Shown piece by piece: positions 38,732 to 56,100 of a stretch of DNA of 64,000 nt. The notes under the pieces were generated by a model. It searched no databases and had not been told where the DNA came from. It saw nothing but the letters and a program-made list of their open reading frames with translations. Position numbers and translations under genes: made by a program. The stretch's first letter is position 1, and each line of letters starts with the position of its first letter. Origin of the DNA: Candidatus Latescibacterota bacterium (GTDB lineage Bacteria > Latescibacterota > UBA2968 > GCA-2709665); the NCBI GenBank assembly GCA_963667175.2, contig CAXXXF010000015.1, forward strand, positions 640,001-704,000, given 5' to 3'.

Positions 38732-39057
38732 AGGTGAGACATTCCTCCAAATCTTCCCAGCGCGGCTTCACCTTGCTCGGCCGCAACTGATCTCAATTGA
38801 CTACGATGGGCGCCTCTGAATCATCCGGGAAACGCATCCATCGCACGCGCTTAACCTCTCAAAAAGGCGGTGTGAACGTGGGGCCTGCCTGCAGCGCAGT
38901 TCGCTGCGCAGGCAGGCGGACATTCCTGTCTGCACGCGTCACACTGGCCGTGAGCCGAGAAAATGGACGACCTCTACGCGCCGTTTTGCAGCCATGCCCT
39001 TTGTGCCTTTTGTGCTTTTTGTGGCCGATTTTTCGGTTGTCTTTTTTCGAACTGCGG

Positions 39058-39537
39058 TTAGATGATCAACCAAACCGCCATAGACAGGATCTGAAAGATA
39101 AACAGGATGATGGCCCAGAAGCCAAAGAGTTGTCTATGGTAGAGGGCTCTCTGATTGCGTATCGAGTACTCCCCGATTCGTTTGATCATCGTTGTTTTGA
39201 ATTCCAGCGTACTCAAGGTTTCGGTCGTGTTCTCTATGAACTCCTTGTAGAGGCCGTAGGGCGTGAACATCTCAAGTCGAATGCCGACTCGTCCGTAAAT
39301 ACACAGGATGAGTCCGGCAATAAAGAACAGTCCTGTGAAATAGATCGGGTAAGCAATTAGGGATTTCTCGAATGTTTTCGCCAACAGGCCCACGGAAACG
39401 ATGGTGGAGCCGTATAACGGGAGAATCCGGTGAAATAACCTGTTTAGCGTATCCCTGCTTTCATAGTGACTGAAAAAGGTCTGCAGGGTCAAACCATACA
39501 GCAAATCTACATTAGATTGTTCTGAATTGTCGGACAT
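39058..39537 (-). CDS. Hypothetical membrane protein (3 hydrophobic segments)
   Basis: AAGGAGA RBS, 159-aa ORF, AT-richer than its neighbours. Confidence 0.7.
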   Translation of the reverse strand: MSDNSEQSNVDLLYGLTLQTFFSHYESRDTLNRLFHRILPLYGSTIVSVGLLAKTFEKSLIAYPIYFTGLFFIAGLILCIYGRVGIRLEMFTPYGLYKEFIENTTETLSTLEFKTTMIKRIGEYSIRNQRALYHRQLFGFWAIILFIFQILSMAVWLII

Positions 39538-40224
39538 CCGGGTTCTCCTTTCTCGACCTCTCTGATTCACCAAAACGAAATTTACTTGGATGGACGGGAT
39601 GAAAACCAGACAGGCGGAAGAATGCGTCCTGTTCCCGATGGTCGCCCCATGGGGCGCATGACGTCAGAAATTGCAACACCGATACACCCGCTCCAAATCT
39701 ACGGCTTCTTATATGACTTGCCAATAGGTAACTTAATCAGGGTTTCCTGGCGCGCCTCCGCTATGCTCAGCCCTGCCTGCGCCGTGTCCGGCACGGCAGG
39801 CAGGCGCAATCCAATACGCGCAAGTGAATGCGTGCGCCCGGCAAACGGTCAAATCACTCCCCCCTTGAGGGGAGTCGTAGAAGCCGAGCCGGCGCCAGAG
39901 CCGGCGCCCTGAGCCTGTCGAAGGGTCGAAGGGCCGGCGACGGCTGATGCGGAGGGGGGATTTCAATGCCTTTCGTTAGCCGGGAGCATGAATAAAACAT
40001 GCACGCACTTTGCGTTGAAGTCTTACTGCAAGACTCTAAGCCCCCGCGCAGGGCAAAGAAAACCCCCTGAAAACAGGGGTGCGAGGGTTTCTCCGGCGAA
40101 CGAGCAGGCGGAGGTCGGATTGTACTCGGGCTACCGGTATGCATCGTGGCAATGCAATGTAGCTTGCGTCTCGAATCAGAAAGAGTTATATTTCGTCCAT
40201 AGATTTACCAATAGCGATAGAAAA

Positions 40225-40290
40225 GGTACCCCCCCGATGACAAGCGCCCAAGGGGCTCTCTCTGGCGACGGAGTAGTCGGGGGGGTCGTC
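40225..40290 (-). ncRNA. Candidate DUF3800-associated structured RNA
   Basis: CCCCCCCGA/TCGGGGGGG closing stem with an internal GCCC-CTT-GGGC hairpin, ~20 nt after the stop of a DUF3800-like gene. Confidence 0.45.
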
Positions 40291-40308
40291 TGTTTGTGGC
40301 ATAGGTAT

Positions 40309-40740
40309 TCAATAATAATTCGTGGCTTGATTCCGAAAGATGTCACTCTCGCTGCGAACTGCACTTTGGATCCGATCGTAGTAGGTCGTGTCGCCTCTTT
40401 GCCATTTTCGGAATATCGCCCAGCAACCATAGTCCGCAATCTGCAGACCATAATGTGAGCGTGATTCGTGATGTAATATGCGGTACTTCATCTTTTTCGG
40501 TAGAAACTCAGCCAACGCAAGTTGAACGCCTTTTTCGACTGCTCGTCGCCTCTTGTTTACTGGAATTTTATCGGTAATGACGATGAACTCTTCAGCATCA
40601 GTCGCCAACTCCTTGGGCGGCACATCCGCCAGCAGGCGGCCCAGCATTTCCGGGTAGAATCGTCTGTCTTCCCAAAGCGTCGGCGCTGTTTTCCTCTTCT
40701 CGATGACCAGGCTATCTATGCGCATACCATTGTGATACAT
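40309..40740 (-). pseudogene. DUF3800-like protein, 5'-truncated
   Basis: C-terminal S..HYGLQIADY.CWAIFRKW motif is present. The N-terminal acidic DESG-type motif is absent, and the upstream frame runs into the divergent antitoxin gene. Confidence 0.65.
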
Positions 40741-40762
40741 TTGAACAAAGAAGAGGGTGCGC

Positions 40763-41020
40763 ATGGCAAAGACGGAATTCATCCGAGCCCGAATAGAACC
40801 TGAGTTGAAGACCCAGGCCGAAGAGATATTTTCGAAGCTCGGATTGTCCCCCACCGATGCGATCACGCTGTTCTATGTGCGGGTCACCCTCCACGGAGGC
40901 TTGCCCTTCGCGGTGAGGATTCCTAACAACGAGACCATTGAGGCAATGCGGCAGGCTGGTACACGGGAGGGCCTAATCGAATACGCCGACCTGGATGCGC
41001 TCAAGGCGGAGCATGGTTGA
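40763..41020 (+). CDS. Type II antitoxin, RelB/DinJ family
   Basis: IRARIEPELK..AEEIF..LGL...AI..F......GLPF.V.IPN.ETIEAM; no intact toxin follows. Confidence 0.92.
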   Translation: MAKTEFIRARIEPELKTQAEEIFSKLGLSPTDAITLFYVRVTLHGGLPFAVRIPNNETIEAMRQAGTREGLIEYADLDALKAEHG

Positions 41021-41140
41021 TCCGGGTGCTTTCACCACAGATCGATTCGGTAAGGTTGCCAGCTCCTCTGCTACGCAGTGAATCTCAATCGTTGCGGTGT
41101 CGGAGGGCACGACTTTCAGACCAACAATATGAAGGCAAAG

Positions 41141-41172
41141 ACAAACCCCCGAGAGCGGAATTTTCGGGGGTT
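41141..41172. terminator. Hairpin terminator downstream of the cysteine desulfurase
   Basis: AACCCCCGAGA...TTTCGGGGGTT. Confidence 0.55.
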
Positions 41173-41260
41173 CTATGTTGTGTGCGGCCGACAGTCTGAT
41201 GCGCCGACAAATTCCCGCCTGGTCAGAACGATGTAACGAGGTGGGGGTAGGATTTGCGAT

Positions 41261-42439
41261 CTACAATATAGCAGTTTCGACCGTAACGGTCGCAAGGGCC
41301 TCGTTTAGCAGTCGGGCCGCGGTTTCGATTTCTTCGGTCGTCGTGAATCGGCCAAAACTGAAGCGGATGGACGCCTCGCTTTGTGCGTCCGATACGCCGA
41401 GGGCCCGGAGCACGTGCGACGGCTCGGGGATGCCCGTTGTACATGCCGCGCCGGTGGATGCGGCGAGGCGAGGCTGAAGGACGCCAAGGACGTCCTGCGC
41501 ATCGTGGCCGTCAAAGCAGATGTTCGCGTTGCCAGGATGGCGCCTGTCGCCGATTGGTCCGTTGACCGTGATTGGACATTCTCCTTTTTCCAACAGACCA
41601 ATGAAAGTATCGCGCAGGCCAGCCACACGTTTCCGTTCCTCCTCGGCGTCGCCGCTCGCAATAATCTCGGCGGCGGCCCCAAAACCCACGCAGAGTGGCA
41701 TCGGGACCGTGCCCGAACGGAGGCCCTCCTGCTGTCCGCCGCCATAGACCATCGGCTCGACTGAGTCCTTTAGATCACGGCGAATGTACAGCGCCCCGAT
41801 ACCCTGTGGGCCGTACATCTTATGAGCCGAAAGGCTGATCAGGTCGGCATGTGCGGCGAGATCGCTGATATCCATCGCGCACGGCGCCTGCGCCGCGTCG
41901 CAATGAAATACAATGCCGTGCGGTTCGAGCAATTCGGCAATCCGCGGGACGTCCTGAATGGTCCCCACTTCATTGTTGACAGCCATCACCGATGTAAGGA
42001 GAACGCGGTCGTCGACGAGCTTCTCCAATGCATCGAATTCCACAAACCCGTCGCTGTCAACCGGAATGGTCTCAACGGAGATGCCATGATTCTCGGCAAT
42101 CGCCCTGGCGGCCGCGATAACACACTTGTGTTCGATTGCGCTGAACAGTACTCGGTCCCGGTCGTCACTCCCGCGGCGCGCAAGACCTAGAATCGCCAGG
42201 TTGTTTGCTTCCGTCGCCCCTGACGTGAAGATAACCTCATCTCCGTCTGCGCCAATCAGAGTCGCGACCCATTCTGCCGCCTCGCGAACCGCCTCGCCTG
42301 CTCTCCACCCCACAATGTGGTCGCTGGAGTGCGGGTTTCCGAACGATTGGCTCCAATACGGGGCCATCTTGTCCAATACCCGTGCATCAACGGGTGTAGT
42401 CGCCTGATAATCGGCGTAGATGGTGTCAGGATGGTTCAT
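41261..42439 (-). CDS. dndA: Cysteine desulfurase, IscS/DndA/SspA type
   Basis: YADYQATTP, FGNPHS, FTSGATEANN, NNEVG, PLP-Lys SAHKMYGPQG, RSGT, catalytic Cys in STGAACTTG; divergent from DUF4007. Confidence 0.9.
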   Translation of the reverse strand: MNHPDTIYADYQATTPVDARVLDKMAPYWSQSFGNPHSSDHIVGWRAGEAVREAAEWVATLIGADGDEVIFTSGATEANNLAILGLARRGSDDRDRVLFSAIEHKCVIAAARAIAENHGISVETIPVDSDGFVEFDALEKLVDDRVLLTSVMAVNNEVGTIQDVPRIAELLEPHGIVFHCDAAQAPCAMDISDLAAHADLISLSAHKMYGPQGIGALYIRRDLKDSVEPMVYGGGQQEGLRSGTVPMPLCVGFGAAAEIIASGDAEEERKRVAGLRDTFIGLLEKGECPITVNGPIGDRRHPGNANICFDGHDAQDVLGVLQPRLAASTGAACTTGIPEPSHVLRALGVSDAQSEASIRFSFGRFTTTEEIETAARLLNEALATVTVETAIL

Positions 42440-42612
42440 TGTTTGCTCATCATGTTCTATCTGCAGAAATTACACAATGACTGTCATTGGCGCACGTACA
42501 CTCCCAAGCAATTTTTTATAATAAAAACAAATAGTTATACTAGGGAATGAGGACTATTGGTTAGGCTCTTAATCGAAGAATCCCTGAGAGAAAATCTGAA
42601 ACTCTTTTGCAA

Positions 42613-42644
42613 TTGACAATACTTCGTTTTGTTACTATTGTCAA
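42613..42644. promoter_or_regulatory. Palindromic bidirectional promoter/operator
   Basis: TTGACAATA-N14-TATTGTCAA gives TTGACA-17-TATTGT on both strands. Confidence 0.6.
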
Positions 42645-42673
42645 GCTGGACGTTCCATCCAGTGGGAGCTATT

Positions 42674-43633
42674 ATGGGTCGAGGTCCCTTATACGAAGAC
42701 GGCTACCAACCGCAACTATCCGGGCACGAGACATTTCCTCTCAGATACGGGTGGCTTAAGAAGGCTTTCGATGCCGTGCGGGAAGCCGAGAGCGACGAGA
42801 ATGGCGGATCGGTCTTCTCGTCGGATGGGGCCATCGCCCGTTTTGGCGTCGGCAAGAACATGGTCGCGTCAATTCGGCATTGGGCGACCGCCGCGGGTGT
42901 CATCAGAGAAGCGTCGCGGAAGCCAAGAACCACGTTACTTGCACGGCGACTATTTGCGAGAAATGGTCTCGACCCCTACATGGAAAACCCTGCGACAGCG
43001 TGGCTGATTCATTGGCAGCTTTGCGGCAACCCCATTAAAACCACATGGTTTTGGACGTTCAATCATTTTCCGGCTCCTTTCTTCGAACGGGATTTGCTTG
43101 TACGTAGCCTGGAGAAACTTCCGGATGAGTGTGGTTGGAAGCCGGTGTCTTCCGCGACAATCAGGAAGGATGTGGCCTGTTTTGTCCGTACGTACGTTTC
43201 GCGGCCCCCGACGGGAAGGGCAAGTCGTGAAGATACGCTGGAGTCCCCGCTCACGGAACTCGGGCTGATTAGACCGATCGGAAAGCGGGATGGATTCCGC
43301 TTCGTGCGTGGTCCTAAACCTTCGCTGGGTCAGGGTGTATTCTGTTACGCGGTCACGAATTTCTGGCGCAACCACCTCCCCGATGTTCGTACGATCTCTT
43401 TCGAAGCACTAGCACATGAACCCGGATCGCCGGGAAAGGTATTCCTGTTAGACGAGAACGACCTGGCGGATCGTCTAACAGACCTGGAAGATGTGAGCAA
43501 CGGCCTCTATCGCTGGTCGGAAACGACAGGGCTGAAGCAGTTGACCCGGAACCGGGAATTAGAAAGTGGCGAAGAGATCGAATTCGTCGAGTTTGACTAC
43601 GGTGGCAAGTTGACGGACAAGGAAATGTCCTGA
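42674..43633 (+). CDS. sspB: DUF4007 family protein (SspB-like)
   Basis: SGHETFPLRYGWLKK, FGVGKNMV.SIRHW, DPYME...WLIHW, ESPLTELGLI, SPGKVF. Confidence 0.88.
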   Translation: MGRGPLYEDGYQPQLSGHETFPLRYGWLKKAFDAVREAESDENGGSVFSSDGAIARFGVGKNMVASIRHWATAAGVIREASRKPRTTLLARRLFARNGLDPYMENPATAWLIHWQLCGNPIKTTWFWTFNHFPAPFFERDLLVRSLEKLPDECGWKPVSSATIRKDVACFVRTYVSRPPTGRASREDTLESPLTELGLIRPIGKRDGFRFVRGPKPSLGQGVFCYAVTNFWRNHLPDVRTISFEALAHEPGSPGKVFLLDENDLADRLTDLEDVSNGLYRWSETTGLKQLTRNRELESGEEIEFVEFDYGGKLTDKEMS

Positions 43634-46600
43634 TGGGGCTGGCCGATCGAATAACGATCGCACGGAGGTTTCAGCGTGCGATACGCATCGATAGTGATCT
43701 CAATGATCCGGCTGCATTGGATGGCTTCATTTGTCCAAGATCTTCAGCCGAGGTACTCGAAACAATGGCCCGGCATCTGATCGAAACCGGGCAGGGTGCA
43801 TTCACGTGGACGGGTCCTTACGGCAGCGGAAAGTCGAGCCTCGTAATCGCCCTCAGCGCGGCATTGAAAAATAACGGCGGGCGTGCACGCAATGCGGAGT
43901 CGATACTGGGTCGAAAAACGACATCGATCATTTGGGAAGCGTTGCCCCCTCGCACGAAGGGCTGGCGCATCCTACCCGTGGTTGGTCGAAGGGAACGTCC
44001 GGCTCAAGTCATTGGCGAAGCAATTGCGGCTAATGAATACATTAAAACCCATCCACAGGAGTCGTGGTCCGACAAACGCGTATTGGATACCCTCGAAGAG
44101 ATTGCGTCTAGAAATCCGCGGTCACACGGCGGTCTGGTGATCTTTATCGACGAGTTGGGCAAGTTCCTTGAGGCGGCAGCCAAGGACGGGTCCGATATCT
44201 ACCTGTTTCAGGAACTTGCGGAGAGGGCTTCCCGCAGCAAGAAACGGCTTATTGTTGTCGGTATTCTCCATCAAGCATTCGACGAGTACTCCCACCGCCT
44301 GTCGCGTGAGATGCGGGACGAATGGTCGAAAATACAGGGCCGTTTCTTGGATCTCGTGGTCAACACCCACGGAGACGAGCAAATCGACCTGCTAGGCCGC
44401 GCTATTGAAAGCGATTATCGTCCGCAGACAGCGCGCCCGCTAGCTACGGATGTAGCATCGCAGATACGGCGGCAGACACCTCCCTATTTTGCGGACATGC
44501 TGGAGGATTGTTGGCCTCTTCATCCCGTCGTAGCATGTTTGCTTGGACCTATCTCCCGGCGCCGGTTCGGGCAGAATCAGCGGAGTATTTTCGGTTTCCT
44601 GAATTCCGCCGAAGCTCAAGGGTTTCAGGACTTTATTCGTTTTGCCGGCGATAACGACATCTACGGTCCCGACCGCCTCTGGGATTACCTTCGGATCAAC
44701 CTTGAACCAACGATTCTGGCTTCACCGGACGGACACCGCCTGGCGCTGGCTATCGACGCCCTGGAACGTTGTGAGGCAGTAGGCGGTGACCAATTGCATC
44801 AACGGCTATTGAAGGTAATCGCAACCGTCAACATGTTCAGGGACCGCTCGGGACTCGGCGCGAGCCGACGTCTATTGGAACTTGCACTACCCGACTATGA
44901 CTCAGGCGACGTCGAAAACGCGCTGAGAGATTTGAAAGGTTGGTCGTTCGTCATCTTCCGCAAATTTGACGACGCGTACTCCATATTCGAGGGTAGCGAT
45001 TTCGATGTCGATGATGCAGTAAGACGCGCACAGGATAGCACGGGCGAGGTGGACTTTACCGCGCTCAATGCGCTTGCCGGCCTGCAACCGATCGTTGCAA
45101 AACGCCACTACCACGAAACCGGGGCTCTACGCTGGTTCGACGTTGTCGTGGTTCCTCTGGCGGAGGTAAAGCATGCGGCTGCCGAGTACGCACCGCGACA
45201 AGGCGCTATTGGCGGATTCTTTCTAGCGATTCCGACTCAAAATGAGAGTGAAGCGGTGGCATGGAAGATTTGTCACCAGGCTTCAGCGGAACGACTACAA
45301 TGTGACGTCGTAGTCGGTCTCTCTCAGAGGGCATGGGGCATTCCCTCCTTGGCAGTTGAGCTGTTGGCGCTGGAGCACGTGCGCGACGAGACGCCGGAGC
45401 TTCTAGGGGACAGGGTCGCGCGTATCGAGGTCGAGGCCCGTGTCAGTGCGTTACAGGGGCATCTGGAAGGCGAACTCGCCGGTGCCTTCGATAGCGTGTC
45501 GTGGAGCTATCGAGGCGCGACCTCAGATTCTCTTCGTTACGCCGAAGTCAATAGTTTCGCTTCCGATCTCGCCGACGCCCGTTTCAAAAAGGCTCCTCGA
45601 ATCCACAATGAATTGTTGGGCCGGATGAAACCGTCGAGCAACGCCGTCGCCGCACGAAACACGCTTCTTAGACGCATGGCTCTGCATGAAGGCGAGGCGC
45701 GGTTAGGCATCCAGGGCTTCCCTGCAGAGGGCGGGCTGTTTGCTTCGCTTCTGGATGCAACGAGGCTCTACTCTGAAACCAATGGTGTATGGAGATTTGT
45801 GGAGCCCTTGGACGGCGACAAAGATCCGCACAACCTGGCGCCAACCTGGCAAGCGGCAAAGGAATTCCTCGAATCCAAAGCTGACCGTTCGGTGCCGTTA
45901 TCCGAGATTTACGAAATCTGGCGGCGACCTCCATTTGGCATAAAGGACGGTCTCCTGCCCGTATTGGCAGCGGCTTTCTTGCTCTCGCAGCGAACCACAT
46001 TGGCATTCTATCGTGACGGGATCTTTCAAGCGCGCGTTTCAGAACTGGATATGGACTTTCTTGCCAGAGATGCATCTGATATTCAGGTGCGATGGATGGA
46101 CATTTCAGAAATGTCACGTCGGCTCTTATCCGAAATGGCGGACATCGTGCGTGACCTTGACGAAGAGAACACGTTGACTCATCTTGAACCGATAGACGTA
46201 GCGAAGGGATTGGTCGCCATATATGACCGTTTGCACCCGTGGGTCGGCAGAACCCAGAGACTTTCGCGCAATGCCAGACGCATCCGGCAACTCTTCAAGC
46301 AGGCCAATGACCCAAACAAGCTGATTTTTGACGATATTCCCGGCGTATTACCGAACGTGCAAGAGGTTGAACTCAAAGACGCTTCCGAAGAGATCGCGGA
46401 TCGTGTCCGGAACGGTTTGACGGAGTTGATCCAAGCCTATCCGAATATGCTCAATCGTATCCGTGAAACACTTCTGACGGAGCTTCAGGTGCCGAATGCG
46501 TCACCCTCAATGCTTGCTGAACTACGTGCTCGCGCTGACAATATACGGGAACTTGGCGGCGACCACCGTCAGGAGGCATTTATCGTACGCCTTGCGGAGT

Positions 46601-47016
46601 TCGAAGGTGGCGACGACGACATGGCAGGTCTCGCAGGCATGGCGGTAAACAAACCCGTCCAGAATTGGGTGGACCCGGATATCGATCGTGCGACAGTCGA
46701 ACTTGCAACGATGGCGCAGCGGTTTATTCGTGCAGAAGCCTTTGCACGAGTCAAGGGTCGCAAGGACAAGAGGAACGCAATGGCGGTAATTGTGGGGATG
46801 GGCGGACAGCCGAAGCTGGCTCACAAAGAATTCGAGATTACGGAGCGGGATCAAACTGCAGTTAGAGAGTTAATTAATCGCTTGGACGGAACACTGAGAA
46901 GCAACGGCCAGGAAAGACGCAACTTAATTCTCGCCGCCCTGGCGGAGTTAAGCGCTCGGTATCTGGATCCCGATGTATCGACGAAATCAAGTGGGACGAG
47001 GAGATCCGACTCGTGA
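43633..47016 (+). CDS. sspC: Large P-loop ATPase (SspC-like)
   Basis: Walker A GPYGSGKS, Walker B IFIDELGKFLE, EWSKIQGRF, WPLHP, FGQNQRSIFGFL, PPFGIKDG; start overlaps the DUF4007 stop. Confidence 0.85.
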   Translation: MGLADRITIARRFQRAIRIDSDLNDPAALDGFICPRSSAEVLETMARHLIETGQGAFTWTGPYGSGKSSLVIALSAALKNNGGRARNAESILGRKTTSIIWEALPPRTKGWRILPVVGRRERPAQVIGEAIAANEYIKTHPQESWSDKRVLDTLEEIASRNPRSHGGLVIFIDELGKFLEAAAKDGSDIYLFQELAERASRSKKRLIVVGILHQAFDEYSHRLSREMRDEWSKIQGRFLDLVVNTHGDEQIDLLGRAIESDYRPQTARPLATDVASQIRRQTPPYFADMLEDCWPLHPVVACLLGPISRRRFGQNQRSIFGFLNSAEAQGFQDFIRFAGDNDIYGPDRLWDYLRINLEPTILASPDGHRLALAIDALERCEAVGGDQLHQRLLKVIATVNMFRDRSGLGASRRLLELALPDYDSGDVENALRDLKGWSFVIFRKFDDAYSIFEGSDFDVDDAVRRAQDSTGEVDFTALNALAGLQPIVAKRHYHETGALRWFDVVVVPLAEVKHAAAEYAPRQGAIGGFFLAIPTQNESEAVAWKICHQASAERLQCDVVVGLSQRAWGIPSLAVELLALEHVRDETPELLGDRVARIEVEARVSALQGHLEGELAGAFDSVSWSYRGATSDSLRYAEVNSFASDLADARFKKAPRIHNELLGRMKPSSNAVAARNTLLRRMALHEGEARLGIQGFPAEGGLFASLLDATRLYSETNGVWRFVEPLDGDKDPHNLAPTWQAAKEFLESKADRSVPLSEIYEIWRRPPFGIKDGLLPVLAAAFLLSQRTTLAFYRDGIFQARVSELDMDFLARDASDIQVRWMDISEMSRRLLSEMADIVRDLDEENTLTHLEPIDVAKGLVAIYDRLHPWVGRTQRLSRNARRIRQLFKQANDPNKLIFDDIPGVLPNVQEVELKDASEEIADRVRNGLTELIQAYPNMLNRIRETLLTELQVPNASPSMLAELRARADNIRELGGDHRQEAFIVRLAEFEGGDDDMAGLAGMAVNKPVQNWVDPDIDRATVELATMAQRFIRAEAFARVKGRKDKRNAMAVIVGMGGQPKLAHKEFEITERDQTAVRELINRLDGTLRSNGQERRNLILAALAELSARYLDPDVSTKSSGTRRSDS

Positions 47017-47855
47017 AAGACACAAGAAAGGAAAAACACGTTCTGGGTCTGTCGGGTGGCCGCGATAGCGCGGCGCTTGCCGTATACATGCGCCAAAACT
47101 ACCCCGAACTTGACATCGAATATTTCTTTACCGATACTGGCAAAGAATTACCTGAAGTTTACGAGTTTCTGGTCAAGCTAGAAGGCTTTCTGGGAAAGTC
47201 AATCGAACGGTTGAATCCAGATCGCGATTTCGACTTCTGGTTAAAGCAATACAACAACTTTCTGCCGTCGGCCCAAAGCCGATGGTGCACGCGGCAACTC
47301 AAACTGCGGCCTTTCGAGCGGTGGATTCGTCCGATTCTGGACAGTGGCGTAACGGTTTATAGCTACGTCGCGATTCGTGCGGACGAGGAATATCGCGAAG
47401 GCTACACCTCGAAACGCGGCAATTTGGTCGTGAAGCTCCCGCTGAAGGATGACGGGATTGACAAAGCGGGAGTGCTGGAGATCCTTGAAGGCGCGGGGCT
47501 TGGGTTGCCGCACTACTACGAGTGGCGGACGCGTAGTGGCTGCACGTTCTGTTTTTTCCAGCAGAAAATCGAATGGGTGCGATTGATGGACCGACATCCT
47601 GAGTACTTCGAGGAAGCCAAGCGCTACGAGAAAACCGCCATAGGTCACGGGTCACCCTTCACCTGGAGCCAGGGAGAATCGCTTCACGATCTCGCCAAAC
47701 CAGAACGCGTGGCGCAGATCGAGGCGGAACACACTCGACGACTCGAAAGAATGCACAACAAACGTCAGGTCAACCCGCTTCGACCAGATGCGGAACCTAT
47801 AGACGTAGATGACCTATATGGTAAAGCAAAGGTATGTCTTGCATGTCACAAATGA
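47013..47855 (+). CDS. sspD: PAPS-reductase family ATP pyrophosphatase (SspD-like)
   Basis: PP-loop LSGGRDS, FTDTG, RWCT, RSGCTFCF, terminal CLACHK; GTGA overlap with the ATPase. Confidence 0.88.
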   Translation: MKDTRKEKHVLGLSGGRDSAALAVYMRQNYPELDIEYFFTDTGKELPEVYEFLVKLEGFLGKSIERLNPDRDFDFWLKQYNNFLPSAQSRWCTRQLKLRPFERWIRPILDSGVTVYSYVAIRADEEYREGYTSKRGNLVVKLPLKDDGIDKAGVLEILEGAGLGLPHYYEWRTRSGCTFCFFQQKIEWVRLMDRHPEYFEEAKRYEKTAIGHGSPFTWSQGESLHDLAKPERVAQIEAEHTRRLERMHNKRQVNPLRPDAEPIDVDDLYGKAKVCLACHK

Positions 47856-48094
47856 CGACGAGCGCGAAGGACCTAATGTCATTGCCACGAGGGAGGTCTC
47901 GTGGGCGCAAGAAAATGGACATTCCGATCAGTTTCGTTGGAAGGAAAACAGGTTGTTGCGACTGCGGAAATTTAGATGTCCATGGTAGCAATCGACGAGG
48001 ATGACGATAGGTCGGGCTAGATGGTGTGTGCATTGAACATCGCGACGCCTTTCGGCCTGAAGTGATTGACGTGTTCAACCCTGGTAACGAACCA

Positions 48095-48562
48095 ATGGAG
48101 TCACCTGCGGATCTTGTTGCTTCTCAGGACGATTACAATAGGCACGTTTGGCCTTTTTGCCTTTGGCCGAATCAATGGAAGACGTGCAATGTGAATCTAA
48201 GGTGGCACAACGTAGTATTAGACGACAATGGCAAGTCTAACGTACCCGACACAACCGGGGTCTATTCTCTAGTAATTCAACCCGGGATTGCAAACCACCC
48301 GGGATGCTCTTATCTGATGTACGTCGGTAAGGCCAAGGATCTTCGAAAACGCTTTGGTGACTATTTGTCCAGAGAGAGAACCAAGCGTCCCAAAGTTGTG
48401 CGACTTCTTGAAATGTACCGAGGCCACATAAAGTTTTTCTATTCAACGGTCGACATAGAAACTCTTGACAATACAGAAGAGGAATTGATCAACACCTTCA
48501 TTCCTCCTTGCAATTCAAGATTTAAAGGGGTAGTACGACGGGTGTCAGGGGCATTTCGATGA
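48095..48562 (+). CDS. GIY-YIG nuclease family protein
   Basis: P.TTGVY...YVGKAKDLRKRF..Y...EEELI....PPCN. Confidence 0.85.
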   Translation: MESPADLVASQDDYNRHVWPFCLWPNQWKTCNVNLRWHNVVLDDNGKSNVPDTTGVYSLVIQPGIANHPGCSYLMYVGKAKDLRKRFGDYLSRERTKRPKVVRLLEMYRGHIKFFYSTVDIETLDNTEEELINTFIPPCNSRFKGVVRRVSGAFR

Positions 48563-49836
48563 ATGACAAACAAGATCGACTCTTTCTTCCTGCCCTTCGG
48601 GCCACGATGGGCGATTGGGTGTATTACATATCCTATATGAGCATGGATGATATCGCTGCTCGCGTTAGCATAGTTGACGATATCCATTCAAGCAGATCAT
48701 TGAAGGATTGGCTACAAAGGGGGCTAACCAACAACTCAGTAAAAATCACAGAGTACTTGGTTGCCCAGAAACAAAGACTATTCAACGCGATAGTGGTTGG
48801 AACCTACGGAGGAAGTCCGAATTGGCATGAGATTACCGTCTCCGGACGAAATCTAGACGAAGTACCGGAAATCGTTGATGGAACTATGGGACTACTGGAA
48901 CTTAACGGGGAAGAAACTCTGTTTGCAATAGACGGTCAGCATCGCGTGAAAGGCATCAAGGAGGCTATCAAAGATAAAGAAACCTTAAAGGAGGAGCAAG
49001 TATGCACGATCTTCATACCAGGAGTTATCGCAAGCAGGCGTGACTCTGACCCAGATGGTTTTCAGCGGACGAGACGCCTCTTTTCGACACTAAACCGATA
49101 CGCTAAACCTGTTCAAAAGCGGGATATTATCGCACTTGATGAAGATGATGTGGTTGCAATAGTCACGCGGAAGCTATTGGAAGAGCACGATTTGTTGATC
49201 GACAAGGTGGATTTAGGCCTTACGAAATCGATAAGAGCTACCGACCACACGAACCTTACCACGATCGTTACGTTGTACGACGTTGTGGACATCGTATTGC
49301 GTGACCGTAAGAGGGGGTGGCAGGACTATAAGCGTCGTCGACCGCCAGAGCCGGAAGTCGACGATTTCTACCGAAAGGCAACGGAATTTTGGGACGAGCT
49401 ATGCTGTCAATTTAGCTCGCTAAACGAGTTTCGTGACAGTTCAACAGAAGATAGCGTCGCTGGCAAATTCAGGAGTCCGAACGGAGGGAATCTTCTATTT
49501 CGTCCCGTTGGCTTGATGTTGATCGGACGTGTTGTCGTTGATTTACGTACGATAGAGGACATGAGCCTAAAAGAGGCGATTGAGGCTGTTGGACGTACTC
49601 CGACCGACCTTACTGATGATCCGTGGCCCGGACTGCTTTGGGACAATGCAAACAAACGTATGCTGACCGCGAAGGAGAATCAGAAGGTCGCTCGTCAATT
49701 GCTTTTCAACGCACTGGGAGGCGATCTAAAACTCGCACCTTTCAAGACATCTAGAGACAAGGTGCGAGAAGAATTGGCAGGATTGCTGAATCGAGATCCC
49801 GAGAAGGTCGGTCTTCCCGTCTACATTTCACACTGA
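48559..49836 (+). CDS. dndB: DGQHR-domain / DndB-like protein
   Basis: LQR, FNAIVV, AIDGQHR, RRLFSTLNRYAKPV; ATGA overlap with the GIY-YIG gene. Confidence 0.82.
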   Translation: MNDKQDRLFLPALRATMGDWVYYISYMSMDDIAARVSIVDDIHSSRSLKDWLQRGLTNNSVKITEYLVAQKQRLFNAIVVGTYGGSPNWHEITVSGRNLDEVPEIVDGTMGLLELNGEETLFAIDGQHRVKGIKEAIKDKETLKEEQVCTIFIPGVIASRRDSDPDGFQRTRRLFSTLNRYAKPVQKRDIIALDEDDVVAIVTRKLLEEHDLLIDKVDLGLTKSIRATDHTNLTTIVTLYDVVDIVLRDRKRGWQDYKRRRPPEPEVDDFYRKATEFWDELCCQFSSLNEFRDSSTEDSVAGKFRSPNGGNLLFRPVGLMLIGRVVVDLRTIEDMSLKEAIEAVGRTPTDLTDDPWPGLLWDNANKRMLTAKENQKVARQLLFNALGGDLKLAPFKTSRDKVREELAGLLNRDPEKVGLPVYISH

Positions 49837-50015
49837 GTGGTTAAACCGATGTCGGACAACACCCTTTATTGGAATTTAAGGAAGTTCGATAGCACGGTTT
49901 TGGAAGTGACCCTTTTTCTGTAGTCGCTGTCAGACCTTGATCTCCGCCCGTTGTTCGATTCCAATGTCCTTGCGGTATTGGATGTCACATTTGGCGGAAC
50001 CATTGTGGGTCACAC

Positions 50016-50297
50016 CTGTCCAAAATCGGTTTCAGTCTTGGACAGCATCTGGTTCACTTCCGCGAAGCAATCCCTCGACCAAGATTGCCTGAGATTCACA
50101 AAGTGCTTATTTCACGGGCTTATTGAGACGGAAACAGCACAATTATGGCCGCTGGAAACGTCACCTTGTTCTTGGACAGCATTGCGCAGACGATGGCAAA
50201 CCTGTTTTTCATTATCCGGGTCAAACCCGTCCAAAATCGCCTATTGTAGCCATTTTTCGAACCTTATCTCTGGGAATCCGACGGTTCTTGGACAGCA
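50016..50297. repeat. Cluster of repeated TCTTGGACAGCA and inverted GTCCAAAATCG sites
   Basis: Exact 12-mer at 50036, 50170 and 50286; GTCCAAAATCG at 50018 and 50229. Confidence 0.75.
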
Positions 50298-50356
50298 GTG
50301 ATTGTGGGTGATGTATTCTAGTTGGATTCAGCCTGAGAGGTTTCGGAGATTTGACA

Positions 50357-52804
50357 ATGAAAGCGACTATGAGGCAGCTTTTTAATGATCTGTACATTGC
50401 AGCGGGCGAAAGCGACGTTGATAAAGTCATCAACAATCGCCCGGAAGTATTCGATAGGAAAAATTGGTATCCCCTTGGAGGTAACGAGAACAACTTTGGC
50501 GTGATTGAAAACCAACAGTCGAATCCGACTGCCGCATTGATAGAGAAGATCACTAATTCAATAGATGCCGTTCTGATGAAGAAGTGCTTGGAGTCAGGTG
50601 TCGACCCCAAATCTAAACAGGCACCACGTACCATGGAGGAGGCAAAGGCTAGGTTTTTCGAAGATCACAAGAACTGGGATCTGGTACGTTCAAGAAAAAA
50701 ACAAGCCGAAGACATACAGATTATCGCCGACGGACCAAGACTCAAGACGTCGCTGACTGTATATGATAATGGGGAAGGACAACACCCGGAAGACTTCGAG
50801 AAGACGTTCCTATCGTTGCTAGAGGGCAATAAGATTGAAATTCACTTTGTTCAGGGCAAATACAACATGGGCGGCAGTGGCGCTATTGTATTTTGCGGCA
50901 AAAGGCGGTATCAGTTAATCGGCTCAAAGAGATTCGACAACAAAGGTAGATTCGGGTTTACGTTAATTAGAGAACATCCTATGAGCCAAAGTGATGAGAT
51001 AGCTCGAAAGGATACGTGGTACGAATATTTAAAGATAGGCGGCGATATTCCTGCGTATGATGCGGCACAACAGGATTTTGGTTTGCATAACAGAAAGTTC
51101 ACTACAGGCACAATAATCAAACTGTACTCATATGATTTGTCAGTGGGTAGCCGTTCCGTAATCTCAAGGGATCTGAATCAGAGTATCAATGAATATTTGT
51201 TCGAACCAATTTTGCCCGTGATTACGGTTGACAAAAAGGAACGGTATCCACATGACCGAAATTTGGAAAGAGATTTGTACGGTTTAAAGCGAAGATTGGA
51301 GCAGGATGATAGCCGCTATGTGGAAACATACTTTTCGGAAGATTTCGATAACGCGCCGTTCGGAAAATTGAAGGCGACATGTTATGTATTCAGGACGAAG
51401 ATGGACGATAGAACGGTAAAAGAGACCAAGCAGACAATTCGCAATGAATTCTTCAAAAACAACATGTCCGTGCTGTTTTCCGTTAATGGACAGGTACACG
51501 GGAACTATACAAGTGAATTCATCACCCGTTCGCTAAAACTGAACCTACTCAAGGACCACCTCCTTATTCACGTCGATTGCACCAATATGGACTATGGATT
51601 CCGCAAACATTTGTTCATGGCGTCCCGAGATCGACTAAAGGATGGCGAGGAAACAAGAAAGTTAAGGCACTTCTTGGCTGAAAAACTCGGCGCAAAAAAC
51701 AGCCGGTTAGCTGAAATCCAAAGACAGAGAAAAGACTCTATATCGGTAGAAAGTGGTGATGCGAAAAAACTCCTGGGGTCACTGACGCAGAATCTAAGGA
51801 TGCAAAGTGACTTGATGAGGTTGTTGTCTCAAACACTAGAATTGGATAAACCTATTGACGGCAGATCGAAAAAACACAAACGCAAGTCGAAAATGAAAAA
51901 GCATGAGGAAACGCAACCCTTTAACCCCAAGCGATTTCCGACGTTCTTTAAGAGGCGCGTGAAGGGTTCAAATGGAAACGGTGTGGTGACAATTCCAATG
52001 GACGGCGAGAAAACTATCCATTTTGACACAGATGTCGAAGACCACTATTTCGATCGTGTTGAGGAACCTGGTGAACTCAAACTTGCTCTGCTAGGTTTCA
52101 AGAGGAATGAATCCTCGGGCGGGGTATCACCCGGCCAAATTGATGAAATCGAAGATGTATTAAATGTGCGTAAGAGTAGCCCACAAGAAGGTACCATCAA
52201 AGTTCATTTAAACCCAAAAGAAGAGGTATCTGTCGGAGACGCAGCCAAGATCGAGGCTGACCTCACTTCTCCAAACGGAGCCTTTGAAGCGGAAGTATTC
52301 TGGGTGAAAATAGGTGAACCGAAGGCGCCTAAGCAGAATTCAAAAAAGAACAACGAGGCCAATTTCCCGAATTTAGGACTTCCTGAATATATCCTTACCT
52401 ACCAAAACCCAATGGAGAATGCTGTAACTTGGAGCGATTTCGAGGAAACGACCGGCCAATCTATGGACTATGACGTTGTGATGCATCCCTCACTAGAAGG
52501 CGACCAGTTAGAGAAAATCTATATTAATATGGACAGCACGACATTCAAAAATTACAAGCCTAAGAACCCGAACGATGAGCAGTTAGAGTTGGCAAATGGT
52601 AGATACATCGCGTCGGTGTACCTGCATACTCTGTTTCTCTATACGATAACAAAGAACCTGAAATACAGAATCAAGAGAGAATCCGAAAACGGTCCCGTCG
52701 ACGAGGAAATAGACACGTACCTTAGGGAGTTATTCGGTAGCTATTACGCAGAATTTATCCTGAACTTTGGTGCAGATCGAATAATGCAATTGCTCGCGGA
52801 CTAA
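50357..52804 (+). CDS. Large protein with N-terminal GHKL (HATPase-like) domain
   Basis: ALIEKITNSIDA (N-box), VYDNGEGQ (G1), QGKYNMGGSG (G2-like), TGTII; C-terminal half not recognised. Confidence 0.8.
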   Translation: MKATMRQLFNDLYIAAGESDVDKVINNRPEVFDRKNWYPLGGNENNFGVIENQQSNPTAALIEKITNSIDAVLMKKCLESGVDPKSKQAPRTMEEAKARFFEDHKNWDLVRSRKKQAEDIQIIADGPRLKTSLTVYDNGEGQHPEDFEKTFLSLLEGNKIEIHFVQGKYNMGGSGAIVFCGKRRYQLIGSKRFDNKGRFGFTLIREHPMSQSDEIARKDTWYEYLKIGGDIPAYDAAQQDFGLHNRKFTTGTIIKLYSYDLSVGSRSVISRDLNQSINEYLFEPILPVITVDKKERYPHDRNLERDLYGLKRRLEQDDSRYVETYFSEDFDNAPFGKLKATCYVFRTKMDDRTVKETKQTIRNEFFKNNMSVLFSVNGQVHGNYTSEFITRSLKLNLLKDHLLIHVDCTNMDYGFRKHLFMASRDRLKDGEETRKLRHFLAEKLGAKNSRLAEIQRQRKDSISVESGDAKKLLGSLTQNLRMQSDLMRLLSQTLELDKPIDGRSKKHKRKSKMKKHEETQPFNPKRFPTFFKRRVKGSNGNGVVTIPMDGEKTIHFDTDVEDHYFDRVEEPGELKLALLGFKRNESSGGVSPGQIDEIEDVLNVRKSSPQEGTIKVHLNPKEEVSVGDAAKIEADLTSPNGAFEAEVFWVKIGEPKAPKQNSKKNNEANFPNLGLPEYILTYQNPMENAVTWSDFEETTGQSMDYDVVMHPSLEGDQLEKIYINMDSTTFKNYKPKNPNDEQLELANGRYIASVYLHTLFLYTITKNLKYRIKRESENGPVDEEIDTYLRELFGSYYAEFILNFGADRIMQLLAD

Positions 52805-52869
52805 TCCTCGTATCGAGTAGATAGTGCGGATAAGATAGCCAACAAATGAAGTGAAGGTTTTCACACGGG

Positions 52870-52977
52870 GATGAGAATTCCGAATGCCCAGGTCCGTACG
52901 CGCGTCTGCAAGTGCGCGCTGGATCGGGTCACAACGAGTACGCCGATCTGGACGCGTTCAAGGCGGTGCATGTTTGA
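52870..52977 (+). pseudogene. Degenerate 3' fragment of a second RelB/DinJ antitoxin gene
   Basis: MRIPN...EYADLDAFKAVHV* parallels VRIPN...EYADLDALKAEHG* of 40763-41020. Confidence 0.7.
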
Positions 52978-53062
52978 TCGGCGCACCTTGTCGCCTCGTA
53001 TCGCCTTGAGCGACGGCTAAGGCACGCCGGAAGAAATTGACAAATTAACGAATTGCAAGAGA

Positions 53063-53100
53063 AGACCTCCGGAGACCGACATCTCAGGGGGTCTGCTTTT
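53063..53100. terminator. Hairpin terminator
   Basis: AGACCTCC.GAGA...TCTC.GGGGGTCT followed by GCTTTT. Confidence 0.5.
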
Positions 53101-53145
53101 GGTCAGGCGTCGACCGGAGGGCGATTGCGACCTCTCTGCCTCGTC

Positions 53146-56100
53146 TCAAAACGACATGCCGAGCTGGAGGTGGGGGACGGCGCCTTTGGGTTCGGTGAAG
53201 CCGTATGCCGCGCCGATGCGGAAGCGGAACGGCACAAAGAGCATGCCGGCGGAGTACACGATCTCGGCGCCGGCGGCCAGGAGCGGCTGCGGCCTGGCTG
53301 ACTGGGAGTCATTGCGGCCCCATGCGTTTCCGGCATCGGCGAAGAGCGTGAGAAACGCGCGGTCGAAGTGCAGCAGGTCCGTCCGAAAGGCGCGGTTCGC
53401 CAGGGTAGCCGGCAGGCGGAGTTCGAGCGACGCAGTCCAGGCGCGCCATCCCGAGCGGGGGGTCCCTTCGTATCCCCGAACAGGAAACACGCGTCGGCCC
53501 GAGCCGCCAATGCTGAAATGCCCCCTGCCGCTGCCCGGCCCGCGCGCGATGCCCGCGCTTGCCCGGAGCGCCAGCACCGGCGCCGCGAATCCGCCTCCTG
53601 GCAGCATCATGTATGCCCTGACGTCGCCGGTCGCGTCGTCCAGCGACCGGTCATCCGATGAACCCCGGTCCAGGTCGATGCGCCGCCTGGCCAGGACGGA
53701 GAGTGACGCGCCCGCCGCCTGCCCGATTTGAAACGCGTGGGACCGGGCGGTCGAGGCGCGGAAGCGGGCTGCCACTTCGCCCAGCGTGCTGCTGGGGGTC
53801 TCGAATTCAGGCAGTTCCTCTGGCTTGAGCGTGGAATCCAGCGCCTCCCGGCGCTCTCTCAGAAGTCCGCCCGTGAGCGAGAATGAAAGCTTGCTCCACG
53901 CCCTGGGACGCGCTACTCCCACTGAGAGTCCCGCATAGCGTGTCCGTTCGAGAACATACGTGGTGTCGACCGGTGCGTCGCCGTTCTCCTTCCTCACCCT
54001 GACGCGTTCCTCGTCCCAGTTCTGCGACACGGACAGTCCCAGCGCGGGATTGCCGAGCCCGGCATACCGGTACGTCAGAAAACCCGCCGCTCTGCCGCCC
54101 GAATATCCTCCAGTCGGGAGAAAGGCGCGCGCAGTCAGGGCATACGTATGTCGTCCCACGAGGTCCACCCCGGAGGTAAAGGCGCCAACGGAGGCGCCGA
54201 GGACCTTTGTACGTGGCGTTGTCCCGCTCCCCGCGCCCGAGAAGGAAACCGACCCGATGGGTATCCAATAGCGCGGCAGCAGGGTCTGCAGTGGCGAATA
54301 TGCGCGTATTTGACCGCCGGCAGGGGCCCGGGAGTCACTCTCTCTGGCTGCGACCTCACGAGCGGTTCTGCCCGCGGCCGTGTCTGTCGAATCGTGAAGG
54401 TGTTCAGGCGCCAGGGGGGCGTGGTCCGGATTGAACGGAATGCGTTCGACCTCCCATCCGTCCACGTGGTACCCGGAGACATAGAGCCACTTCCCCGACG
54501 GATCCACGCTCGGCATGGCGGCGCCCGTACGGACGTTCGTGAGCATGACCGGCGTTGCGGCCTTCGCGCCTTCGAAACGCGCCGCGAGGACGTTCAGAAT
54601 GCCGGTCCGGTCGGACGCCCACACCAGCCACCGCCCGTCGGGGCTCCATGCGGGCGCGAAATCCAGCGCGCGGTCCCGGGTGACCTGGCTCACGAGGCCG
54701 CCGCGTTCGTCGAGGACGACAACGTCCTGATTCCCGCCCGCCCAGCGGGACGCGGCAATCCGCCGGCCGTCGGGTGAGACCGCGGGCAATGCCCAGTAGA
54801 CGCCGTCTTCCGGGTGAACCAGCGTATCGATGGCGCCGCTATTGATATTGACGCGGACCAGGCCGTTCGTCCCCTCTCCTTCGGCAACGGCGACAACACG
54901 GTTTCCCGGGCCGGCCGACGGGGCGCTCAGGCGGGCGGCGGTGGTCAATCGTTGCACCGCGCCGTCCGGAGTCACCCGGTAGAGATCTCTGAACCGCCGG
55001 TACCGCCCGGAGAATTCCAGCTGGTCGACGACAATGTCGCCGTTCGGCGCGAACGTGAACCGGCGTCCGCGGATCCGCGCGAACGTCGATTCGCCGCCGC
55101 CGTTCGGGCTTGCCGAAACGAGCCTGGTATCGGATCGGCCATCGGAGCGGATGTAGATCAGGGTCGAACCATCCGGCGACACCTTCGGATGGTCCGCATA
55201 GCGGGCGCCATCGGTAAGTCTTTCAGCTTCGGTGATCGCGCCGAATCCGGCGAGCCGGGCGCCCAGCACCGCCACAGAGTCCCGCCACGCGTCCGCCCAC
55301 GCGGCCCATTCGTCCGACAGGCTGACGCCGAAGGCGCTTCTTCCTGCCGCGTTCAGCCGATAGGGTATCCACTGGTTCTCCACGGCCTCGACAAAGGCCG
55401 CCATCCGGTCCCGCCCGTGCTTCCGCAGGAGGTATTCGAAGAACATCGGCCCGTACGTGTACGCGCGGTTTCCGCCAGGCCATTGCGGCGAGGAACCTCC
55501 CGCCTGGCCGATGGACTCGAAACGGCCTTCCAGCGCTGCCGTCCGCAGCACCATGTCGTTGAAGGTTCCCAGCACGCGGCCCCTGCCCGTGAGTGCGGAT
55601 TCGTACCACGTCCCGATGCCTTCGATGACCCACCGAGGCGTCGTGAAGGCAGGAAAACCGAAAACCGGAAACGGAATCCGGCCGAAGAGTCCCCGAACGC
55701 TGTAACGGCCCGGCCGGTCGAGGTGAAAAATGTGCGTCAGTTCGTGCACGATCAATAGTTGCTGCCAGTCGTCGAAATAGCCGAGCGGGAAACTGTCGAC
55801 GGGCGGACGCGCGAACAGGACAATGCGGTTCGAAGGGAATGGGGTCGCGTACCCGTTGGAGACGTCGGTATGATCGGTGAGGACGACGTCGATCGGTCCT
55901 TTCGGCCCATGGACGAAATGTTCGGACAGCCGCGCGTAAGCCCACTCCGCCTGCCCGCCCGCCCGGCGGGCAAGCGACTCGAGATGCCCGGGGAAGGTAA
56001 CGCGGAAGTGTTCCGTTTCGAGAGTGCGCCAGGGTTCGTCCGGCGGGACAGGCTGCGCCACAGCCGGCGTTGCGCAATAGGCGATGAACGCCAGCAGGAC

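Follow-up and report, generated by a model that had tools for sequence, protein, structure and literature searches.

The phosphorothioate (PT) writer SspABCD is paired, in the described systems, with one of two effectors, SspE or SspFGH. In SspE, a DUF262 NTPase is fused to a DUF1524 HNH nickase, and the DUF262 domain senses PT and gates the nickase (PMC12065111, PMC12137116). A Walker A motif is present in SspF, and the C-terminus of SspH resembles FtsK (PMC8092258). SspE was found in only 199 and SspFGH in only 196 of the 2,678 sspBCD clusters of a published census, ~7% each (PMC8092258). Here we describe a locus that offers two widespread candidate partners, a family of GHKL ATPases specific to Ssp and a pair of genes, for a GIY-YIG nuclease and a DGQHR protein, found with writers of the Ssp, BREX type 4 and Dnd types. 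The locus lies at 41261–52804 of a 64,000-nt stretch of a Candidatus Latescibacterota genome (contig CAXXXF010000015.1, positions 640,001 to 704,000), referred to below as the window. It is a variant of PT-based defence and not a separate kind, and it is real and recurrent.

Seven open reading frames (ORFs) fill the interval (Table 1). An earlier note, made from the letters of the sequence, had listed these ORFs, read the first four as an SspABCD-like writer with translationally coupled genes, and named a GIY-YIG nuclease and an 815-amino acid (aa) GHKL ATPase downstream; these identifications were all borne out. By gene content, 41261–47855 is a complete SspABCD writer, with PADLOC matches at E values from 1e-105 to 0, and PT marks are presumably made at this locus. 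The sspB and sspC genes meet in TGATG (1-nt overlap), sspC and sspD in GTGA (4-nt overlap), and the nuclease and DGQHR genes in an ATGA overlap.

Table 1. Features of the locus and its edges, in window coordinates
Feature	Coordinates	Strand	Remarks
relB/dinJ-like ORF	40757-41020		87 aa
45-bp direct repeat, left copy	40978..41022		3′ end of the relB/dinJ-like ORF
sspA, cysteine desulfurase	41261..42439	-	divergent from sspB; Aminotran_5 4.8e-80; PADLOC SspA 3.6e-127, DndA 5.3e-124
sspB, DUF4007 DNA-binding/nicking subunit	42629..43633	+	DUF4007 6.9e-86; PADLOC SspB 4.3e-105
sspC, BrxC-like AAA+ ATPase	43633..47016	+	1127 aa; PADLOC SspC E=0, 1297 bits, model positions 1-1044 of 1045
sspD, PAPS-reductase-type ATP pyrophosphatase	47013..47855	+	PADLOC SspD 1e-135, positions 1-277 of 277; PAPS_reduct 5.6e-7
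GIY-YIG-type nuclease	48026..48562	+	longest ORF 178 aa; likely ATG 48095, 155 aa
DGQHR (ParB/Srx-fold, DndB-like) protein	48559..49836	+	425 aa; TIGR03187; coupled to nuclease gene
Miniature inverted-repeat transposable element (MITE)-like insertion	50011..50300		290 bp; in the DGQHR-GHKL gap; no part of the system
GHKL ATPase	50351..52804	+	815 aa from ATG 50357; MORC/Hsp90-like ATPase and middle domain, linker, Ig-like beta-sandwich, C-terminal alpha/beta domain
45-bp direct repeat, right copy	52935..52979		degenerate second 3′ end of the relB/dinJ-like gene

The nuclease scores weakly against family models: 19.7 bits against Pfam GIY-YIG, under the cut-off of 22.6, and 1.2e-5 against the NCBIfam model of the UvrC N-terminus; a 13-sequence profile searched against the PDB placed UvrC GIY-YIG domains in the top three positions (best E 0.0099). 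The catalytic residues are conserved throughout, with G78, Y80, Y99, G101, R109, Y113 and E151 invariant in the 13 homologues. The superfamily is defined by a GIY and a YIG motif with a conserved Arg and Glu after them (bioRxiv 10.1101/2024.10.26.620412), and the protein has all of these, as G78-x-Y80, Y99-x-G101, R109 and E151. Because the homologues begin near M24, translation probably starts at the internal ATG given in Table 1.

The DGQHR protein scores 101.6 bits against TIGR03187 (cut-off 58.85) and 4.8e-26 against Pfam DndB, and its D125-G-Q-H-R129 motif is invariant in 14 homologues. It fails the DndB equivalog TIGR03233, with 51.8 bits against a cut-off of 328, and its profile gave only a chance-level match to PDB sequences. 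Prediction of a complex between the DGQHR and GIY-YIG proteins (score 0.02, mark 0.32) gave no verdict either way. An hhalign comparison (E 2.7e-4, probability 42%) aligned the DGQHR protein with DUF262 proteins from related loci at the DGQ(H/Q)R and F..LN motifs, in agreement with the description of SspE as the equivalent of DndB (PMC4619093, PMC10853773). DGQHR and DUF262 have been described as related ParB/Srx-fold domains (PMC4619093, PMC3632139, PMC12065111).

ATP-binding motifs and a GHKL/middle-domain fold place the third downstream protein among the MORC/Hsp90-like GHKL ATPases, its score against Pfam HATPase_c_3 being 22.1 bits, under the cut-off of 25, and its profile finding nothing among PDB sequences at E ≤ 1. 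Invariant in 26 homologues are E63, N67, D70, D137-x-G139-x-G141 and G167...G175, which we take to be the N, G1 and G2 boxes. An AlphaFold model, with a predicted local distance difference test (pLDDT) value of 74, matched the ATPase and middle domains of Hsp90 and MORC3 in Foldseek at E values of 6e-9 to 3e-7, among them 5.9e-9 for Hsp90 and 1.6e-7 for MORC3 over ~420 columns. The C-terminal 296 residues (pLDDT 80.5) form an Ig-like sandwich and an alpha/beta domain. The family is large: of 8,000 scored candidates, at least 2,984 database clusters matched, the 120 best with identities of 66% or more; its members are annotated as 'hypothetical protein' in RefSeq, and as 'hypothetical protein' or 'putative HATPase' in protein-atlas clusters. 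Prokaryotic MORC and paraMORC ATPases have been predicted to be components of restriction-modification (R-M) systems (PMC2292703).

None of the seven proteins matched the PADLOC models of SspE, SspF, SspG, SspH, PglZ, BrxL, DndD or DndE, in line with the earlier note, which had recognised no SspE, DndD/E, PglZ or BrxL. The only PADLOC match among the three downstream proteins was that of the DGQHR protein to DndB (1.7e-13). The absence of known partners is meaningful because the same PADLOC models match strongly at other loci: SspF, SspG and SspH at L096 (E 2e-208, 1.5e-195 and 0), SspF and SspG at L057, BrxP, BrxC, PglZ and BrxL at L125, and DndC and DndD elsewhere. In the window's genome, the SspE model PDLC02783 gave partial matches only (E 6e-7 or weaker), on other contigs.

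With SspABCD-SspE the locus shares the writer genes, a ParB/Srx-fold DGQxR protein adjoining a nuclease, and the position of these 3′ of sspD. It differs in that the DGQHR/DndB-type sensor and the GIY-YIG nuclease are separate proteins, whereas SspE is a single fusion, and in having an extra GHKL ATPase and no SspE gene with the writer. With SspABCD-SspFGH it shares a multi-gene set 3′ of sspD, but the available description of SspF and SspH does not fit the downstream proteins of the window. The DndB of DndABCDE likewise has a DGQHR domain and a tie to PT writers; the window's protein departs from it in lying below the equivalog cut-off, in being coupled to a GIY-YIG gene and in occurring not only with DndC/DndD but also beside writers of the Ssp and BREX type 4 kinds. 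The core genes of a Dnd system are not seen among the seven proteins, SspD matching DndC only weakly (9e-5) and neither DndD nor DndE being matched, and the designation 'Ssp/Dnd hybrid' proposed earlier was an overstatement for a pair found with Ssp, BREX type 4 and Dnd-type writers alike. BREX type 4 is approached through matches of SspC to BrxC (1.5e-104) and of SspD to BrxP (7.8e-10), and through the presence of the same pair in BREX loci; however, SspB and SspD are separate genes here, with no BrxP fusion, and PglZ and BrxL are unmatched.

The GHKL ATPases of MORC/paraMORC R-M systems (Iyer, Abhiman and Aravind 2008) and of GHKL-Shedu (VcSduA) resemble the window's protein in combining GHKL with an S5-like middle domain, in their association with DNA modification and in frequently having a second GHKL protein nearby. 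The window's protein differs from MORC/paraMORC in its partner, which is PT (Ssp) with no methylase, and in that no fused nuclease was recognised. The searchable text of PMC2292703 gives no PT or Dnd context for paraMORC ('dnd' and 'paps' each with 0 occurrences). A methylation-based counterpart of the Ssp-linked arrangement is found in a Bacteroidota genome (L147:5015-15205, G388), where the gene for a 37%-identical GHKL relative shares an operon with genes for a C5 cytosine methylase, a MutH-like protein, a metallophosphoesterase and another GHKL protein. GmrSD, Menshen NsnA and other ParB-DUF262 systems have an NTP-gated sensor of ParB fold that controls an effector linked to it. Matches to NsnA (2.4e-28) and GmrSD_N are given by the DUF262 cassette proteins found beside the GHKL gene in related loci; the window differs in having the DGQHR branch with a GIY-YIG partner, and no NsnB- or NsnC-like genes. 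URI/GIY-YIG nucleases have been noted at the edges of Dnd neighbourhoods (PMC10853773). No published description of the GHKL-Ssp link or of the GIY-YIG+DGQHR pair was found in searchable text, and the pair is unmentioned in the published BREX text examined; supplementary tables (PMC8092258 Table S2; the datasets of PMC10853773, PMC12839542 and PMC12914056) may list such neighbours.

The GHKL family is closely linked to ssp genes. A scan of one genome per species gave 54 loci with 47–71% identity to the window protein; genes in these and all other fetched loci were called by a crude longest-non-overlapping-ORF rule. sspB/C/D are present in 45 of the 54, the remaining nine each having <1.1 kb on at least one side, and in 34/34 of those flanked by 8 kb or more on each side. 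Ssp-linked GHKL loci span several phyla, carrying the labels Poribacteria, Bacteroidota, Nitrospirota, Alphaproteobacteria, Binatia and Syntrophales, and the same neighbourhood is found on RefSeq plasmids of Hymenobacter and Ensifer. Among 168 genomes of the window's phylum, SspD occurs in 44 and the GHKL protein in 7; all five strong GHKL matches lie ≤3.3 kb from an SspD match, and the two weak ones (36% and 27% identity) are not near SspD. Among 401 sampled Bacteroidota genomes, SspD occurs in 17 and a GHKL match at E=0 in four, three of these being within 3 kb of SspD and the fourth having both genes at contig ends; two 29%-identical relatives are in genomes without an SspD match. The window-type GHKL protein was seen only beside sspBCD, and only distant relatives (29–37% identity) occur away from ssp.

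For the pair, a 14-sequence DGQHR profile was searched against metagenome contigs and the best 80 of 422 relatives, many on short contigs, were taken as loci. Of the 63 loci with 600 bp or more of upstream sequence, 58 have a nuclease gene immediately 5′ of the DGQHR gene in the same orientation, most commonly with a 4-nt overlap (21/58). Where at least 8 kb upstream was available, a PT writer was present in every case (23/23): Ssp in 13, BREX type 4 (BrxP/BrxC/PglZ/BrxL) in nine and DndC/DndD in one. The pair is found inside the ssp operon at L072 and L076 (SspC-SspD-GIY-DGQHR-SspA) and between sspD and sspFGH at L096 and L116, while at L103, L121 and L146 no other labelled candidate effector was seen on the stretch covered. 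BREX type 4 clusters with the pair include L125, L108, L126, L132, L139, L141, L144 and L140; in this setting the pair lies 3′ of brxL in seven metagenome loci and 5′ of brxP in one. Both the pair and the GHKL gene are thus genomically linked to PT writers, and the recurrence beside sspBCD that the earlier note had proposed as a check is seen for both.

The same note had treated the three downstream genes as one module, and this did not hold: the pair and the GHKL gene are two separable modules. The 817-aa GHKL protein is present in only 4/80 metagenome pair loci, and the pair, or the DGQHR gene alone, in 11/45 Ssp-bearing GHKL loci; in G060, from the window's family, the pair lies 3′ of Ssp and the genome has no GHKL match at E ≤ 1e-20. 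The slot around the GHKL gene and sspBCD is instead occupied by a range of sets: DUF262 with a Ser/Thr kinase, DUF262 with SIR2, ParB_N with a PD-(D/E)xK-like protein (one locus), a double-GHKL protein, or GIY-YIG with DGQHR. A DUF262-only protein with a kinase or SIR2 partner is present in 18 of the 45 Ssp-bearing GHKL loci, a ~780-aa double-GHKL protein with one or two uncharacterised proteins in nine, and at least one gene family of a three-gene set of uncharacterised proteins in six. By our own tally, 28/45 have a ParB-superfamily protein, often with an effector.

Several observations on these sets can be added. The DUF262-only proteins, ~360 aa with a PADLOC NsnA match at 2.4e-28, lie between sspD and the GHKL gene (L007:12464-14441 and L019:8019-9967; among L005-L049), and the DUF262+kinase and DUF262+SIR2 cassettes may be non-nuclease outputs of PT sensing. 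The double-GHKL sets (cluster C1) and the C3/C13/C5 set were considered as forms of SspFGH and rejected, having no PADLOC Ssp match. A second, divergent Ssp system lies on the window's own contig ~0.5–11 kb past the window end (G000:C15 ~704.5–715.1 kb; L055:4496-15097). Its SspA-B-C-D proteins are 26–51% identical to those of the first, and its sspD is followed by genes for two proteins, one of 784 aa with a double GHKL (HATPase_c_3 + HATPase_c) and one of 640 aa with no assigned family. This 784-aa/640-aa pair is also found 3′ of sspD in L065 and L066, and together with the 817-aa GHKL protein in L020, L045, L051 and L061.

The architecture of the window is not a chance arrangement, because exactly the same gene order recurs in Roseibium (L017). 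In two loci labelled Poribacteria (L002, L034) the accessory genes lie inside the ssp cluster, in the order SspD-x-x-GHKL-GIY-DGQHR-SspB-SspC. Three genomes of the window's own genus, whose SspD proteins are 91–94% identical to the window's, have different genes following sspD at the same chromosomal site: GIY-like+DGQHR+GHKL in G054, GHKL and a double-GHKL set in G048, and helicase+GHKL+PLD in G051. In G136 (L057), of the same phylum, an SspD 86% identical to the window's is followed by SspF and SspG. The window shares 93–94% identity with G048 and G054 in SspD and 53–54% in GHKL, and the same figures hold for L061 and L062. Conversely, its GHKL protein is 70–71% identical to those of L001, L002 and L034, whose SspD is 51–53% identical, and its DGQHR protein (47–48%) and nuclease (42%) are closest to those of L002 and L034. 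Since the closest relatives of the accessory proteins and of SspD differ in this way, the accessory block has been exchanged independently of the writer. The G+C content, which is lower than in the flanks across ~39–53 kb, agrees with this, being 53–59% at 41–48 kb, 43–49% at 48–53 kb and 63–68% outside. The Spearman correlation of pairwise identities is 0.55–0.61 between GHKL and SspB/C/D, and 0.79–0.89 among SspB/C/D themselves, the sequences compared being related.

We favour a reading in which the effector position, held by SspE or SspFGH in the described systems, is occupied here by two separable modules tied to the PT writer: a split SspE-like sensor and nuclease, and an Ssp-specific MORC/MutL-like clamp. 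Judged from sequence, we put the probability of this at about 0.55. The DGQHR protein, a putative NTPase of the ParB/Srx fold akin to DndB and the DUF262 domain of SspE, would read the PT state of DNA and gate its GIY-YIG partner, which would nick or cut DNA, so that the pair would be a two-gene analogue of SspE. Discrimination could be either PT-stimulated, as for SspE, or an attack on unmarked DNA, as for SspFGH. The GHKL protein would act as an ATP-driven dimeric DNA clamp or matchmaker, as MutL links a sensor to the MutH nickase, and would connect Ssp marks to whichever sensor/effector cassette adjoins it. A split sensor and effector is the most economical reading because cassettes of a ParB-fold protein with an effector recur in the position of SspE and SspFGH, and the clamp reading is suggested by the fold of the protein and by the R-M setting in which MORC/paraMORC ATPases have been placed (PMC2292703). 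If the modules are effectors, PT-based immunity would be more modular than described, with outputs other than nucleases (kinase, SIR2) and a coupling step like that of MutL.

A broader version of this scheme is possible, though we would sooner bet against it. A large branch of Ssp systems could be a plug-in immune hub, in which the GHKL clamp couples the PT mark to interchangeable ParB-fold cassettes, and the GIY-YIG+DGQHR pair could be a universal PT reader and nuclease common to Dnd, Ssp and BREX type 4. The outputs of such a hub would, just as tentatively, be DNA damage by GIY-YIG or PD-(D/E)xK nucleases, NAD+ depletion by SIR2, and signalling or abortive infection by Ser/Thr kinases.

A number of observations weigh against assigning an effector role to either module. 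The 54 GHKL and 80 pair loci are the nearest relatives of the queries, a biased set that is not phylogenetically independent. Each module shuffles without regard to sspBCD or to the other, and PDC-M62 and a Mrr-type nuclease are also found in the slot, as in a plain defence island. The genome of the window has six GmrSD_N (GmrSD-like) genes, none on the window's contig, which are possible SspE-like partners. Foldseek found no nuclease fold in the C-terminal 296 residues of the GHKL protein, only generic Ig-like sandwiches, and the many Bacteroidota loci in which sspA is directly followed by the GHKL gene may point to the writer side. The pair tracks the writer and not a particular effector set, which fits a DndB-like role on the writer side equally well. 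It is also present beside systems that are already equipped, with SspFGH (L096, L116), an SspF-sized gene (L102) or PglZ/BrxL (BREX type 4), and at L096 and L116 it is no replacement of SspFGH, because it sits between sspD and sspFGH. DndB, moreover, has been reported to be a regulator and not a restriction factor (PMC4507180).

The main rival is accordingly a writer-side accessory role, in which the DGQHR protein would be a DndB-like regulator or quality control of PT density, through DNA binding modulated by ATP or through an effect on the ssp promoter, and the GIY-YIG protein would make or process nicks during modification, neither being an anti-phage effector. We regard this as unlikely, but it stays live because the pair follows writers and not effectors. 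The pair tracks three kinds of PAPS-reductase writers, adjoins the PAPS-reductase gene in Ssp loci and coexists with full effector sets; a regulatory role for DndB is also reported in PMC12839542, and another ParB-like ATPase, DpdB, has a part in DNA modification (PMC12839542). On the other hand, the DGQHR protein fails the DndB equivalog, its gene is coupled in nearly every case (58/63) to that of a nuclease whose catalytic residues are intact, and three of the pair loci (L103, L121, L146) show no other labelled candidate effector on the stretch covered. Canonical DndB is not known to be coupled to a nuclease gene.

It is more doubtful still that the pair and the GHKL gene are merely neighbours in a defence island, self-contained, PT-independent and gathered near ssp by island dynamics. 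This would fit a hot spot with changing cargo (see below), modules that move apart from sspBCD (as in L061 and L062), the step in G+C between the ssp genes and the accessory block, and the PDC-M62 and Mrr-type genes in the slot. However, linkage in 34/34 and 23/23 loci across phyla is far tighter than the usual co-location within islands, the genes lie within ssp operons with short gaps (L002, L034, L072, L076), and away from ssp only distant GHKL relatives are seen. A role for the GHKL protein as part of the modification machinery in some Ssp systems, for example in clamping or looping DNA for scanning by SspB/SspC, with the pair alone as effector, is very improbable: the sspA-GHKL order in Bacteroidota and the moderate identity correlation of GHKL with SspB/C/D agree with it, but SspB/C/D correlate far better mutually, loci with 83–91% identical SspD do without the GHKL gene (G051, G128, G136, G059, G060, G037), and characterised SspABCD systems are described without one in the available text of PMC8092258.

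The earlier note had also placed the genes inside one repeat-bounded island. This was partly right: a seed-11 repeat scan yielded no bounding repeat, and BLAST of the left flank against the right gave one with 87% identity across 45 bp. The alignment of empty sites in G052 and G046 shows a single repeat copy, which places the insertion between the two copies, and homology with the empty site of the closest relative picks up again at 52915. The name relB/dinJ for the 87-aa ORF whose 3′ end forms the repeat is tentative, being based on the C-terminal pattern of that family and not on a family search. The island has no tRNA attachment site, since the single tRNA located is at 1977–2055, and no integrase was seen among the genes examined. 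The island occupies an integration hot spot (38755–53146) between an ATP-sulfurylase gene (37472–38731) and a PD40-propeller gene (53146–56160). Across 14 other genomes of the genus, the hot-spot flanks are 1.75–5.5 kb apart (empty) in 10, enclose Ssp with the different downstream sets described above in three (G048, G051, G054), and are on separate contigs in one.

Predictions of promoters and terminators over 41000–53300 were not above those in shuffled controls (5 against 10.0 expected, and 11 against 13.9). A search of sequencing runs for 47900–52900 listed no RNA run, and returned four runs of one study with word shares of 0.09–0.19 and kind 'DNA?'. The 514-bp gap 5′ of the GHKL gene consists mostly of the MITE-like insertion. 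Its terminal inverted repeats are imperfect, and an alignment of six copies defined its ends and the target duplication of 9 bp, ATTGTGGGT. The insertion looks recently active, because at least 20 further copies with 91–100% identity are present in the same genome and copies are found in relatives too. A distinct family, a dispersed repeat of ~240 bp, is represented at 39801–40039, with many copies at 72–91% identity across the genus. Upstream of the island, an ORF at 40309–40866 on the reverse strand has a partial DUF3800 match (1.9e-5, to the C-terminal part of the profile only) and may be a gene remnant.

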